Positions 10,131 to 28,590 of a stretch of DNA of 30,453 nt are shown one piece after another. Both the position numbers and the translations under genes were made by a program. Below the pieces are notes generated by a model. That model worked only from the letters and a program-made list of their open reading frames with translations. It was not told where the DNA came from and did not search any database. This stretch comes from a virus (lineage: Duplodnaviria; Heunggongvirae; Uroviricota; Caudoviricetes). The stretch covers positions 1 to 30,453 of the IMG/VR virus record IMGVR_UViG_2563366799_000004, one strand, 5' to 3'. Each line of letters begins with the position of its first letter. Within the stretch, counting starts at the first letter, position 1.

Positions 10131-10143
10131 GGCAACAGGCTAT

Positions 10144-10231
10144 CGCGCTCGCGCGCGCAACAATATCGCCGCTGGTTGTCGCCTGAGTCCGACAAAGTGA
10201 AGGCTTTGCGCCTTCCGGCCGCAAAGGGAAT
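10144..10231. promoter_or_regulatory. Late promoter region between P and O: TTGT-N12-ACAA dyad (10176..10195), (GC)n tract (10150..10158), second dyad CTTTGCG-N9-CGCAAAG (10204..10226)
   Basis: The TGT-N12-ACA dyad is the known Ogr/Delta-dependent late promoter element of P2-like phages; it sits between divergent P and O. Confidence 0.55.
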
Positions 10232-10283
10232 GATTGGGGCACTGGTTAATATCAATCGCTTACCAACCCGGAGCTTTGTCACC

Positions 10284-16513: not shown

Positions 16514-16560
16514 TTGTCACCAACCCGCCACAAGGGCGCCGCGTTGTTTGCGCGCGCGCG
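16514..16560 (+). promoter_or_regulatory. Late promoter element upstream of V: TTGT-N12-ACAA followed by GCGTTGTTTG(CG)5
   Basis: Perfect TTGT-N12-ACAA dyad (16514..16533) and alternating CG tract (16551..16560), ~110 bp upstream of V. Confidence 0.6.
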
Positions 16561-16670
16561 ACTCCTGATACTGACTGCATAACCCAAAAGCCGAAACGGT
16601 CGTAAAGCCTGCTACCGGGTGGAAACGACGCCGGACAGCGTAACCGGCACCACGGGAAACAGTCAGCACT

Positions 16671-25829: not shown

Positions 25830-27023
25830 TTAGTTATTCACTGCGCTGGAAAACGTAGCGAAATATTCGTCGGTGAACTCCTGTACCAGGCTGAGATTTT
25901 CCAGCGGTGGAACAGGGGTGTAGTTGTACTTAATGGTCAGTTGACCATTGCGCAGGGTTTCCGAGGTATTCGGTTCCGGGTCATACCAGCAGTGGGCGCC
26001 CAGCAGCTTGCCAGCCGTCACATATGAGGTCAGCTTCTTATTGATGCCGTCCACAATGTCCTTAACCAGCGACGGGGTAAGCGGTTTATCAACATAGGCG
26101 AAATGGGCTTCGGCGACGGTATCCGCAACGATCTGCGCGGTTCGGGTATAGCTTTCGAAGATATACGTTTCCGCGTCGCAGGTACGCGATCCCCAGATGC
26201 GGTAGCCGTCCTGCTTGATCAGCGTGGTAACGCCTGCTGCGTTCAGTTCGTCGGCGTCGGTATCGGTGCCCTGCAACGTGAAATAGATATCCCGATCCAT
26301 CCCCAGCACGTTATTAACGGGCACGTTGGAAATGGTTTTATGCCAGCCCTGCGTTGCGTCGATTTTGGCTCGCATCCCAACAGCATGGGCACCCACGGGC
26401 ACGGTGGCATTAGCCCCGGCGTTGGTGTCGTAGCAGATGAAATTAGGCCAGATAACCATCATTTCACGCTGGGAGAATTGCTCGCGGTATTCCTTCACTT
26501 CGGCGATTGTGTTGCAACCGTTCGCTGCCACGTAAGCAAACGCGCGCAGCTTTTCGGCAATGACGCCGAGTTGTGCGGCTACCGCTTCCGTATCAAGCCC
26601 TGGAACAGCCAGTACACGCGGGCGCACACCTACGCGCATTTCGGCAGACAGCAGCGCGTACATGCCGGTAAAGCGCCCGTTTGCATCGGTGCCGCCAATA
26701 ACCAGTTGATCCTGGGTCTGTGCGGTGCCGCCTTCTGGCGGTTCGATATTTGCAGCATCAGCAACGCGGATCACAATGGTTTGCGGGCTGGTCTGGTCTG
26801 AAATCGCTTTCAGGGTGGTAAACAGGGTGCCGGTTTTACCTGCCTTGCCCAGCATGTTAGCCACGCGGGTAATCAGTACAGGGGTATCCAGCGGGAACGC
26901 TGTTTCGTCCGCATCATCAGCGGTGCAGACAACGCCGATCACCGCCGAATCAATGTCGGTGATCATCGTGCTAAGGTCGGTGGTTTCCGTGACGGTTACA
27001 CCGTGATGGTAGTTAGTGGCCAT
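25830..27023 (-). CDS. FI: Contractile tail sheath protein FI
   Basis: 397 aa; motifs LRAFAYVAANGC and YTPVPPLENL match P2 FI; SD GAGG before the ATG at 27023. Confidence 0.9.
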   Translation of the reverse strand: MATNYHHGVTVTETTDLSTMITDIDSAVIGVVCTADDADETAFPLDTPVLITRVANMLGKAGKTGTLFTTLKAISDQTSPQTIVIRVADAANIEPPEGGTAQTQDQLVIGGTDANGRFTGMYALLSAEMRVGVRPRVLAVPGLDTEAVAAQLGVIAEKLRAFAYVAANGCNTIAEVKEYREQFSQREMMVIWPNFICYDTNAGANATVPVGAHAVGMRAKIDATQGWHKTISNVPVNNVLGMDRDIYFTLQGTDTDADELNAAGVTTLIKQDGYRIWGSRTCDAETYIFESYTRTAQIVADTVAEAHFAYVDKPLTPSLVKDIVDGINKKLTSYVTAGKLLGAHCWYDPEPNTSETLRNGQLTIKYNYTPVPPLENLSLVQEFTDEYFATFSSAVNN

Positions 27024-27094
27024 GTATTTGCCTCGCCAGTTTAATGACTGCGAATATCATTGCGGCAATGGCGGGCCGATGCGATGGATAAGGG

Positions 27095-27143
27095 TTGTCA
27101 GCAACCTGCAACAATGACGGGGCGTTGTTCATGCGCGCGCGCG
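27095..27143. promoter_or_regulatory. Late promoter element centred between divergent FI and D: TTGT-N12-ACAA followed by GCGTTGTTCAT(GC)5
   Basis: Perfect dyad 27095..27114 centred at 27104.5; intergenic midpoint 27102; alternating GC tract 27133..27143 on the D-proximal side. Confidence 0.6.
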
Positions 27144-27180
27144 TGGCGACGATGTACCCCATCATGATGAAGGGGTTGAT

Positions 27181-28299
27181 ATGGACACGACAGAAAACCG
27201 ATATTCGCCGCGCCCGGCGTTCAGTATTGAGATTGAAGGTAAGCAGCTTACGGCGCTGGATAACCGGCTGATCTCCCTTTCCCTGACAGATAACCGGGGC
27301 TTTGAAGCGGACACGCTGGATCTGACTCTGGATGATGCAGACGGGCAGGTAGCCTTACCATCACGCGGCGCAAAGATATCGGTGGCGCTGGGCTGGGATA
27401 ATGATCCATTGGTTTTTAAGGGAGTGTATACGGTTGACGAGATCGGACACTCTGGCCCGCCTGACCAGCTAACGATCAGTGCCAGAAGCGCAGATTTCCG
27501 CGATACCTTTAACGTGAAGAGGGAATATAGCTGGCACGATATTACCGTGGGGGATGTGGTTGCCAGCATTGCCAGCCGTTACGATCTGCGTGCGGGCGTC
27601 AGCGAAGAACTGGCGAAGATTGAGATAGATCACGCCGATCAGACGAGTGAATCAGATATCAGCTTCTTAACGCGCATGGCCGAAATGCTGGGCGCGGTGG
27701 CAACCATTAAAAACGGTATGCTTCTGTTTATCACGCCGGGCAAGGGAGTAACGCAGAGCGGCAAGCCGCTGCCGGTGATCGAGATAGTCCGGTCAAGCGG
27801 TGATAAACATCGGTTTAACGTAGCTGACCGCGACGCGTACACGGGCGTAACTGCATACTGGCTTGATCTCAACTTTGGCAAGAAACCATCCACTACCGTG
27901 AAGAAAACCACCCGCAGGCGACGAACCAGCCAGGCCAAAAAGAAAGAACCCGCATCAAGCAAAAAAGAAGGGGATTATCTGGCCGGGGCCGAAGGCAACG
28001 TTTTTGTTATCCGTAAAACCTTCAAGACGGAAAAGGCGGCGAAGCGGGCCGCTGCGGCTAAGTGGCGGGAGTTGCAGCGTGGAGCGGCGACGTTCAGCAT
28101 CACCCTGGCGCGTGGCCGCGCGGATTTGTACCCGGAACAGCCCGCCAGCGTCTACGGCTTTAAGTCCACGATCGACAGTGGGAACTGGACGATAACGCGG
28201 TGCGTTCACGATATTGGCGGGGGAGGGTTTACCACATCGCTGGAACTGGAAGTAAAAATCGACGACTGGACAGCGGAGAGTGACGATTCAACGTCTTAA
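27181..28299 (+). CDS. D: Tail protein D (late control gene D family)
   Basis: 372 aa; P2 gpD-like N- and C-terminal regions with a basic low-complexity insert (KKTTRRRRTSQAKKKEP); SD AAGGGG. Confidence 0.85.
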   Translation: MDTTENRYSPRPAFSIEIEGKQLTALDNRLISLSLTDNRGFEADTLDLTLDDADGQVALPSRGAKISVALGWDNDPLVFKGVYTVDEIGHSGPPDQLTISARSADFRDTFNVKREYSWHDITVGDVVASIASRYDLRAGVSEELAKIEIDHADQTSESDISFLTRMAEMLGAVATIKNGMLLFITPGKGVTQSGKPLPVIEIVRSSGDKHRFNVADRDAYTGVTAYWLDLNFGKKPSTTVKKTTRRRRTSQAKKKEPASSKKEGDYLAGAEGNVFVIRKTFKTEKAAKRAAAAKWRELQRGAATFSITLARGRADLYPEQPASVYGFKSTIDSGNWTITRCVHDIGGGGFTTSLELEVKIDDWTAESDDSTS

Positions 28300-28347
28300 G
28301 CGTTATACTTGCGTTGATATTAACCAGTCCTGAAAGGAGGCCCGCGT

Positions 28348-28590
28348 ATGGCAATGCGCTGTCCTCGCTGCCGTGCAATAGCAAAAACCAGAACCAGCGT
28401 TGAGCTGAGTTTGCTTGTACGGCGCAGCTATCACCAGTGTCAAAATATGTTGTGCGGGTACTGTTTCACCAGCATGACGGAAATAGACGGTTCACTAAAT
28501 CAGACCCAGCCAGCGCCCGGCGCGATGGTGCCACAAGAAGCTTTTCCACGAAGTCACCACGGCGAAGATCAGTTATCGCTGGCATTATAA
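28348..28590 (+). CDS. ogr: Late gene transcriptional activator, Ogr/Delta zinc-finger family
   Basis: 80 aa; CPRC...HQCQNMLCGYC zinc-finger pattern as in P2 Ogr; located after D. Confidence 0.8.
   Translation: MAMRCPRCRAIAKTRTSVELSLLVRRSYHQCQNMLCGYCFTSMTEIDGSLNQTQPAPGAMVPQEAFPRSHHGEDQLSLAL

Follow-up and report, generated by a model that had tools for sequence, protein, structure and literature searches.

P2 late promoters (PP, PO, PV and PF), which depend on Ogr, Delta or B, carry a TGT-N12-ACA dyad near -55. In the window studied here (i.e. the whole 30,453-nt stretch of IMG/VR record IMGVR_UViG_2563366799_000004), each dyad of this type stands beside a run of alternating G and C, which raises the question of what this run does in a late promoter. 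The initial annotation had described the arrangement (dyad, TTGTT and 9-11 nt of alternating G/C) at three sites and proposed, among other ideas, that the run serves as a structural spacer. We assessed this arrangement in the window, placed it in the register of the P2 promoters and followed it among relatives.

Sequences and comparisons

Relatives were fetched by gpD, gpV or gpP homology, and not by the motif, and their promoters were clustered at less than 85 % mutual identity. Motif counts in the window were compared with those of 100 shuffles, which were dinucleotide-preserving for the composite motif. Promoter register was taken from the P2 record. There, pO and pP diverge from one activator site whose centre is 55-56 bp away from their mapped starts, and the spacing is similar for pV and pF.

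Genome context

The window is a P2-like prophage of Senquatrovirus type (Peduoviridae), and Salmonella phages SEN4 and SEN5 (Peduoviridae, Senquatrovirus) are ~95 % identical to it over the late region. Its early genes are ordered int, C-like repressor, cox, DUF4761, fil, Dam-like methylase and A. The DUF4761 ORF of this early operon (1944-2195) is common to SEN5, P88 and 3LV2017, all of them tract-bearing, and the P2 annotation does not include it; such phyletic co-occurrence is by itself no evidence of a link to the tract.

In the late region, Q and P (minus strand) come first, then O-N-M-L-X-lysis-R-S and V-W-J-I-H-G, then U-T-E-FII-FI (minus strand), with D and ogr last. The FI-U block is inverted relative to P2; D is thereby left with a promoter region of its own, which adjoins that of FI in divergent orientation. 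The activator gene was identified as follows:

28348..28590, plus strand: ogr-family activator gene, 80 aa, CX2CX22CX4C, PF04606 match with E = 1.5e-13

Its product is 30 % identical to P2 Ogr. Since ogr lies directly 3' of D, behind pD, it is probably transcribed from pD too. Such a position behind an Ogr-dependent, tract-bearing promoter (27181-28590) implies positive autoregulation of the activator.

Composite sites in the window

Direct reading gave the following three arrangements. Site 16514-16533 is TTGTCACCAACCCGCCACAA, followed by 10 nt, TTGTTT (16544-16549) and GCGCGCGCGCG (16550-16560). Site 27095-27114 is TTGTCAGCAACCTGCAACAA, followed by 10 nt, TTGTTC (27125-27130), AT and GCGCGCGCGCG (27133-27143). 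On the minus strand, site 10195-10176 is TTGTCGGACTCAGGCGACAA, followed by 12 nt, TTGTT (10163-10159), GCGCGCGCG (10158-10150), A and GCGCG (10148-10144). The composite described initially was borne out by this reading and by the shuffles below, with one correction: the gap between dyad and TTGTT, given as 11-19 bp, is actually 10, 10 and 12 nt.

Exactly three TTGT-N12-ACAA dyads are present in the whole window, at the P/O, S/V and FI/D junctions, for a shuffle expectation of 0.44; this number was reached in 0/100 shuffles. All GCGCGCGCG matches (i.e. alternating G/C of at least 9 nt) adjoin one of these dyads. By itself the count of (GC)n runs is unremarkable (equalled in 10/100 shuffles), and the composite dyad-N14-20-GCGCGCGC was found three times against 0.00 in the 100 dinucleotide-preserving shuffles. 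The signal is the fixed placement of the runs beside the dyads, not their number. When purine/pyrimidine runs of at least 12 nt were considered, only 0.27 % of the 30-nt segments of the window were found to hold one.

Register of the predicted promoters

In P2, the -10 of PP is TAGCCT and ends 7 nt before the mapped start. The window has TAGCCT at 10142-10137 (minus strand), 33 nt past the dyad, matching this element, and an xAxxxT hexamer occurs at the identical offset in all five directions (TAGCCT in pP, GATACT in pV, GACGAT in pD, AATGAT in pO and pFI). From dyad centre to -10 hexamer the distance is ~45 bp, equal to that of P2, and transcription starts in the window were predicted accordingly. 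Given these hexamers at a P2-like offset, the tract falls at about -30 to -14. The predicted elements of the three tract-bearing promoters are listed below.

16514..16533, plus strand: pV Ogr-type dyad TTGTC-N10-(G/C)ACAA, beginning right after the gene S stop codon
16544..16549, plus strand: pV hexamer TTGTTT at the -35 position, by register; TTGTTT, TTGTCT, TTGCTT or TTGCGC in relatives
16549..16560, plus strand: pV alternating tract; G/C run 16550-16560 (11 nt), purine/pyrimidine run of 12 nt
16550-16566, plus strand: pV 17-bp spacer, tract at about -30 to -19
16567..16572, plus strand: pV -10 GATACT by P2 geometry; predicted start ~16579, V start codon 16671
27095..27114, both strands: pD/pFI bidirectional Ogr-type dyad (pD plus strand, pFI minus strand)
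27125..27130, plus strand: pD -35 hexamer TTGTTC; TTGYYY across lineages
27130..27145, plus strand: pD alternating tract; G/C run 27133-27143 (11 nt), purine/pyrimidine run CATGCGCGCGCGCGTG (16 nt)
27131-27147, plus strand: pD 17-bp spacer, tract spanning about -30 to -15
27148..27153, plus strand: pD -10 GACGAT; predicted start ~27160, D start codon 27181
10176..10195, both strands: pP/pO bidirectional Ogr-type dyad (pP minus, pO plus), as annotated for P2 pO/pP
10143..10159, minus strand: pP 17-bp spacer TGCGCGCGCGAGCGCGA; G/C run 10158-10150 at -28 to -20, GCGCG 10148-10144 at -18 to -14
10137..10142, minus strand: pP -10 TAGCCT, same as P2 PP -10; predicted start 10130, the A of the P start codon

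With the starts so predicted, most of the 17 bp that separate -35 from -10 in pP, pV and pD are taken up by the (GC)n run (about -29 to -19 in pV, -27 to -17 in pD and -28 to -14 in pP). The purine/pyrimidine runs are uninterrupted, measure 10, 12 and 16 nt and contain CG steps. As far as position goes, the run is literally a structural spacer, as had been suggested. Judging from the predicted starts, it is not transcribed from any late promoter and must therefore act as DNA within the core promoter.

The identification of the dyad as an Ogr-type site also held: an Ogr/Delta zinc-finger gene is present, and the distance from dyad centre to -10 is that of the mapped P2 promoters. P2-type dyads upstream of the late operons and an Ogr-family zinc-finger gene of its own, which are marks of late promoters in this family, were both found in the window. 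No sigma-70 consensus promoter was detected in the P/O region of the window, as expected for promoters that depend on an activator.

The separate status of TTGTT did not hold. It forms a TTG-type -35 hexamer in pV and pD, while the corresponding position at pP is not conserved (TATTGT, TATTCT, AAGCGA or TGGAGG), and by this comparison its occurrence at pP is coincidental. Neither a motif in its own right nor an additional (third) Ogr half-site was retained as a reading, since TTGTT is conserved only as a -35 of the TTG type at pV and pD, not at pP. The pV -10 is conserved among relatives as GATACT or GAAACT.

Two further observations concern pP. First, the A of the P start codon (10130) lies 7 nt past the end of TAGCCT, and the P mRNA is accordingly predicted to be leaderless; this geometry is kept in several lineages, whereas the P leaders of P88 and 3LV2017 are ~24 nt and that of P2 23 nt long. 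Second, a GATATT upstream of the tract (10167-10162, minus strand, about -38 to -33) is conserved in P promoters of the TAGCCT group, in the form CGATATTGT, AGATATTCT or AGATATTTT, and bears no resemblance to a -35 hexamer. That GATATT might be the true -10 of pP, in which case the tract would be transcribed, was ruled out, since TAGCCT matches the mapped -10 of P2 PP and stands just as far from the dyad.

At pV, the predicted leader (16579-16670) is ~92 nt long, against a leaderless V mRNA in P2, in whose record the annotated V start site coincides with the V start codon. The distance from the pV dyad to the start codon ranges from 88 to 159 nt among relatives.

Partner promoters without the tract

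The tract had been reported at all three late promoter regions. This is correct for the regions, which however hold five promoters, and two of them have no run:

10206..10234, plus strand: pO core promoter without tract, i.e. TTGCGC (10206-10211), spacer CTTCCGGCCGCAAAGGG and -10 AATGAT (10229-10234)
27056..27084, minus strand: pFI core promoter without tract, i.e. TCGCAT (27084-27079), spacer CGGCCCGCCATTGCCGC and -10 AATGAT (27061-27056)

The two have an identical -10 hexamer at the same offset and N17 spacers that are GC-rich but non-alternating. Transcription is predicted to start at ~10241 for pO and ~27049 for pFI. The FI start codon is at 27023, and the O start was placed at ATG 10284 by homology with P2 gpO, with GGAG before it. 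When O is taken from this homologous ATG, the predicted leaders are ~43 nt for O and ~26 nt for FI, compared with 40 and ~25 nt in P2. All five spacers of the window are GC-rich (71-82 %), so that GC content alone does not separate the tract-bearing from the tract-free type.

The SEN5 record differs at several of these places. Its RefSeq version starts gene O at an ATG within the predicted pO -10 (window 10230; L001 3092), small antisense ORFs (SEN5_13 and SEN5_27) are annotated over the pV and pD promoters, and the 'ogr' note sits on the wrong strand. All of these are likely annotation artefacts.

Distribution among relatives

In close relatives, all three tracts were found in place. The Enterobacter soli (L005) and Dryocola (L030) prophages, with gpJ only 83-85 % identical, retain the three of them, with differences in the dyad interiors and in the bases between elements. 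The tract is also retained in the relatives picked by gpD, gpV or gpP homology, without the motif. The absence from close relatives that was to refute the initial reading was thus not seen, and the view of the run as a conserved companion of the dyad is upheld. Counts by cluster, which are not independent as the lineages are of common ancestry, were as follows:

P class: CG-cored alternating run in 8/8 genuine clusters, 8-13 nt, P protein identity down to 63 %
D class: alternating run in 8/10 clusters, 12-16 nt
V class: alternating run in 2/2 dyad-bearing clusters, 12 and 16 nt
O class (on P-class dyads): alternating run in no cluster, at most 6 nt
FI class (on D-class dyads): alternating run in no cluster, at most 8 nt

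At P- and D-type promoters, the tract persists to ~63-66 % protein identity, at which the flanking bases have diverged. Its carriers include Senquatrovirus, Escherichia phage P88 (Xuanwuvirus), Klebsiella phage 3LV2017 (Reginaelenavirus) and contigs of 45 % GC. In the P class nearly the entire spacer is conserved, as CGCGCG(R)GCGCG. O and FI spacers vary freely from lineage to lineage; short alternating runs are also found in P88 pFI and 3LV2017 pO, where the class rule is blurred.

Another P2-like lineage (L035 10220-10300 and ~20 similar IMG/VR loci) has a leaderless V promoter of the form TTGTGCCATCCCTCACACAA-N10-ATGCCG-CGCGCGCCCGTAGGCGG-CACACT-GGCCGC-ATG. Here a (CG)4 block lies at the junction of -35 and spacer, and the downstream ORFs are homologues of V, W, J and I.

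The tract is absent elsewhere. The four P2 promoters are without it, the P2 PP spacer having only CGCGGGGCGCG, and the P2/186-type lineage (gpP ~43 % identical) keeps TAGCCT with PP spacers that are ordinary and variable. Serratia prophage L006 has a pV with the same -35 and -10 and no tract, this pV being the sole promoter within the fetched locus, and a vestige is all that remains in a D-promoter lineage whose -10, TAAAAT, is near consensus. Its absence from the P2/186-type lineage and from L006 pV indicates that the tract is not essential to an Ogr-type promoter. On this comparison of sequences, it is a clade-specific addition, which the Ogr-type promoter plan can do without.

Leaderless V promoters of the P2/186 type (L253-L312) have their -35/-10 spacer filled by a GC-rich inverted repeat, GCCGCCGG-N5-6-CCGGCGGC. 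This repeat could be the terminator of the O operon, lying within pV, or a structured spacer of another kind.

Substitution pattern and spacer length

The tract varies in sequence with its alternation intact, as in TGCGCGCGCGTGTGTG (V class), ACGCGCACGCGC, ACGTGCGCGCACG and TACGCGCGCGTA (D class), GCGTACGCG (P class) and GCACGCACATGCG (P88 pD). Among pairwise differences in the D class, transitions and transversions number 59:18 in the spacer, 34:60 in the 10 nt upstream and 32:86 in the leader; transition-only variable columns amount to 7/10 in the spacer vs 2/21 in the flanks (Fisher p = 0.0013), figures drawn from few representatives of lineages that share ancestry, in which mutational bias could partly explain the excess. 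The P class follows the same trend, with 28:14 in the spacer vs 16:42 and 19:34 in the flanks. The property conserved is thus purine/pyrimidine alternation over 10-16 nt in these alignments, and not the letters G and C: the tract is indeed conserved, as first described, but not as G/C as such.

These data bear on the possibility that the tract is neutral, i.e. a GC-rich filler inherited by descent, perhaps with gene conversion between paralogous promoters, whose alternation is mimicked by transition-biased mutation. It would fit that all tract-bearing promoters of a class are homologous, and that the P2-type lineage and L006 pV do without the tract. Yet substitutions, for the most part transversions, have saturated the adjacent positions free of contacts (dyad interior, the 10 nt from dyad to -35, leader), no constraint is seen in the O and FI spacers of the very same dyads, and the tract survives in genomes of 45 % GC. 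Neutrality is hard to reconcile with flanks so saturated, and we hold it to be very unlikely. Coding constraint from the small antisense ORFs of SEN5 was likewise set aside as unlikely, given the indels in the leaders and the saturation of the columns next to the tract by transversions.

Spacer length is the second constant. The dyad end lies 33 nt from the -10 in 183/184 tract-bearing promoters, and tract length changes by substitution only. Dinucleotide repeats in promoter spacers are a known device of phase variation in other bacteria, e.g. the (TA)n repeat between -35 and -10 of the divergent hifA/hifB pair of Haemophilus influenzae, and slippage in the tract could in principle alter spacer length and so switch a promoter on or off. 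The window resembles hifA/hifB in having a dinucleotide repeat at this place, and differs in its fixed spacer length. The constant 33 nt and the lack of repeat-number polymorphism contradict this explanation, to which we give practically no credence.

In contrast to the spacer, the tract itself has no fixed frame: its length, its place within the spacer and its alternation phase relative to the -10 differ among classes and lineages. The change of phase with promoter class argues against a base-specific contact in fixed register, and this touches the idea that the tract is an operator, i.e. that a phage or host protein (a late-gene repressor, a timer or a second Ogr contact) recognises CGCGCG-like DNA in the core promoter. 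Conservation that is strong and class-specific, above all the almost wholly conserved P-class spacer, is what an operator would give; the Ogr of this clade is just 30 % identical to that of P2, and tract-bearing phages have early genes in common that are missing from P2, such as DUF4761 (a phyletic co-occurrence only). An operator is nevertheless at odds with a length of 8-16 nt, a spacer position and an alternation phase that all vary across classes and lineages, and CGCGCG is missing from some tracts, e.g. that of P88 pD; the self-complementarity of the tract is trivial, with nothing beyond it. We regard an operator as possible but unlikely.

Other sequence-specific roles were considered. 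Methylation of GCGC or CGCG by a cytosine methyltransferase would make the promoters methylation-sensitive, and three DNA methyltransferases are annotated in SEN5. The sole recognisable methyltransferase of the window is a D12-class N6-adenine (Dam-like) enzyme, other candidate ORFs being without a methyltransferase match, and this role was rejected as highly improbable. A hairpin, terminator or cruciform was rejected because there is no inverted repeat beyond the trivial (CG)n palindromy and no T-run. Control through spacer twist is exemplified by promoters of the MerR/CueR family (PMC8169799) and by Mu mom with C protein. These promoters have over-long spacers of 19-20 bp in which the regulator is bound, and as in the reading proposed below, spacer geometry is what is regulated or limits initiation. 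The window differs from these in its 17-bp spacer and in having the activator at -55, and a MerR-like spacer operator was rejected on the spacer length and for want of a dyad beyond (CG)n self-complementarity.

Possible role of the tract

The alternating tract looks like an undescribed structural part of the pP, pV and pD promoters as they are predicted here. Alternation that is kept while phase and length vary, within a spacer of fixed length, favours a structural role over a base-specific operator. We propose that the tract is a cis-acting, DNA-mechanical spacer module tuning pP, pV and pD among the Ogr-dependent promoters, and we see even chances for this proposal. It would act through the mechanics of DNA instead of base-specific recognition: pyrimidine-purine steps that recur every two positions in a very GC-rich duplex would set the twist, the deformability and the supercoiling dependence of the spacer. 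Its effect, and the direction of this effect, may be to lower intrinsic activity, and thereby to tune the pP, pV and pD operons relative to those of pO and pFI.

The distribution of gene products could provide a rationale in terms of stoichiometry. Terminase and portal would be made from pP, baseplate and fibre from pV, D and ogr from pD; pO and pFI, with the same activator dyads and unconstrained spacers, would serve bulk structural proteins. Going by P2 biology in general, terminase, portal, baseplate, D and ogr would be low-copy products, and capsid, sheath and tube would be made from pO and pFI.

An effect of spacer composition on initiation has precedents. Synthetic GC blocks placed in the spacer are said to reduce open-complex formation, in work by Auble & deHaseth of 1988. 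Spacer GC content sets the supercoiling sensitivity of sigma-70 promoters, GC-rich spacers needing negative supercoiling for their deformation (Klein et al. 2021, PMC8695583), and R451 of sigma-70 senses the spacer at -18 (Singh et al. 2011, PMC3130263). The proposal shares with these studies the principle that a spacer sequence free of contacts modulates the promoter via DNA conformation. They deal with synthetic or single promoters and with GC content or single positions, whereas the window offers a natural, conserved alternating block in one class of activator-dependent phage promoters. Further points stand against a mechanical module. The published prior on spacers concerns GC content, not alternation; weak promoters can be built in many ways, and conservation this specific might point to a specific binding factor.

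A more radical form of structural role is a switch between B- and Z-DNA. Under negative superhelical stress the tract would turn to left-handed Z-DNA, the geometry between -35 and -10 would be lost, and pP or pD would be shut off. One possible source of such stress is transcription from the strong divergent partner, which starts ~85-110 bp away, so that a weak promoter would be coupled to its partner or to topology. Alternating purines and pyrimidines with a CG core are the classic Z-forming sequence, drift to TG/CA steps with intact alternation is the outcome expected from selection for Z-potential, and a divergent promoter adjoins 2/3 tracts. The same features (alternation, CG core, drift to TG/CA steps) are those of the (CG)n/(TG)n 'flipons'. 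In single-molecule assays, (CG)11 and (TG)11 flip to Z at modest negative superhelicity, with a junction penalty of ~10 kcal/mol (PMC8053131). The tracts differ from flipons shown to flip in being much shorter (9-16 bp vs the 22 bp of those assays, PMC8053131) and in lying inside a bacterial core promoter. As the junction cost of ~10 kcal/mol is fixed, short tracts need far more torque, which disfavours the switch; it also counts against it that pV has no divergent partner, gene S ending at the dyad. We therefore judge a B-Z switch to be unlikely, and return to the mechanical module, which we prefer, for what follows.

Conclusions

The dyad, the bidirectional site, the TAGCCT -10 and the Ogr-family activator are known features, and by sequence they place the promoters of the window in the P2 late-promoter family. 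As in P2, one dyad serves divergent P and O, and by the predicted starts it would also lie ~55 bp upstream of transcription; TAGCCT is the PP -10, an activator of the form CX2CX22CX4C is encoded nearby and the same morphogenetic operons follow. Unlike in P2, FI-U is inverted, the D promoter shares the FI dyad and the P mRNA is predicted to be leaderless. Where P2 and its close relatives have ordinary variable spacers, three promoters of the window have a conserved alternating tract. This conserved alternating spacer lies outside the description of that family. Full-text literature searches gave no description of the tract, and the classic P2/P4 promoter papers may hold an early remark.

Promoter spacers are usually taken as sequence-neutral. 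Here a spacer is conserved across several temperate-phage genera while neighbouring bases are scrambled, and it is kept as a purine/pyrimidine pattern in just one of the two promoters at each shared activator site. The tract offers a simple signature by which late promoters can be annotated in P2-like prophages that do not belong to the P2/186 lineage; current annotations put spurious small ORFs or over-extended starts over such promoter sites. Should the tract govern promoter strength or dependence on supercoiling, this would account for the different outputs obtained from one activator, i.e. low-copy products and bulk structural proteins, and the tract would be a naturally occurring example of a core promoter with DNA mechanics written into it. 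More doubtfully, the tract could be a torsion-sensing element of the core promoter, i.e. a natural prokaryotic 'flipon' or a torsionally soft spring. If so, pP, pD and pV would read the superhelicity of their template, including negative supercoils from the strong divergent pO or pFI, and one activator dyad would give rise to two different, topology-coupled outputs.
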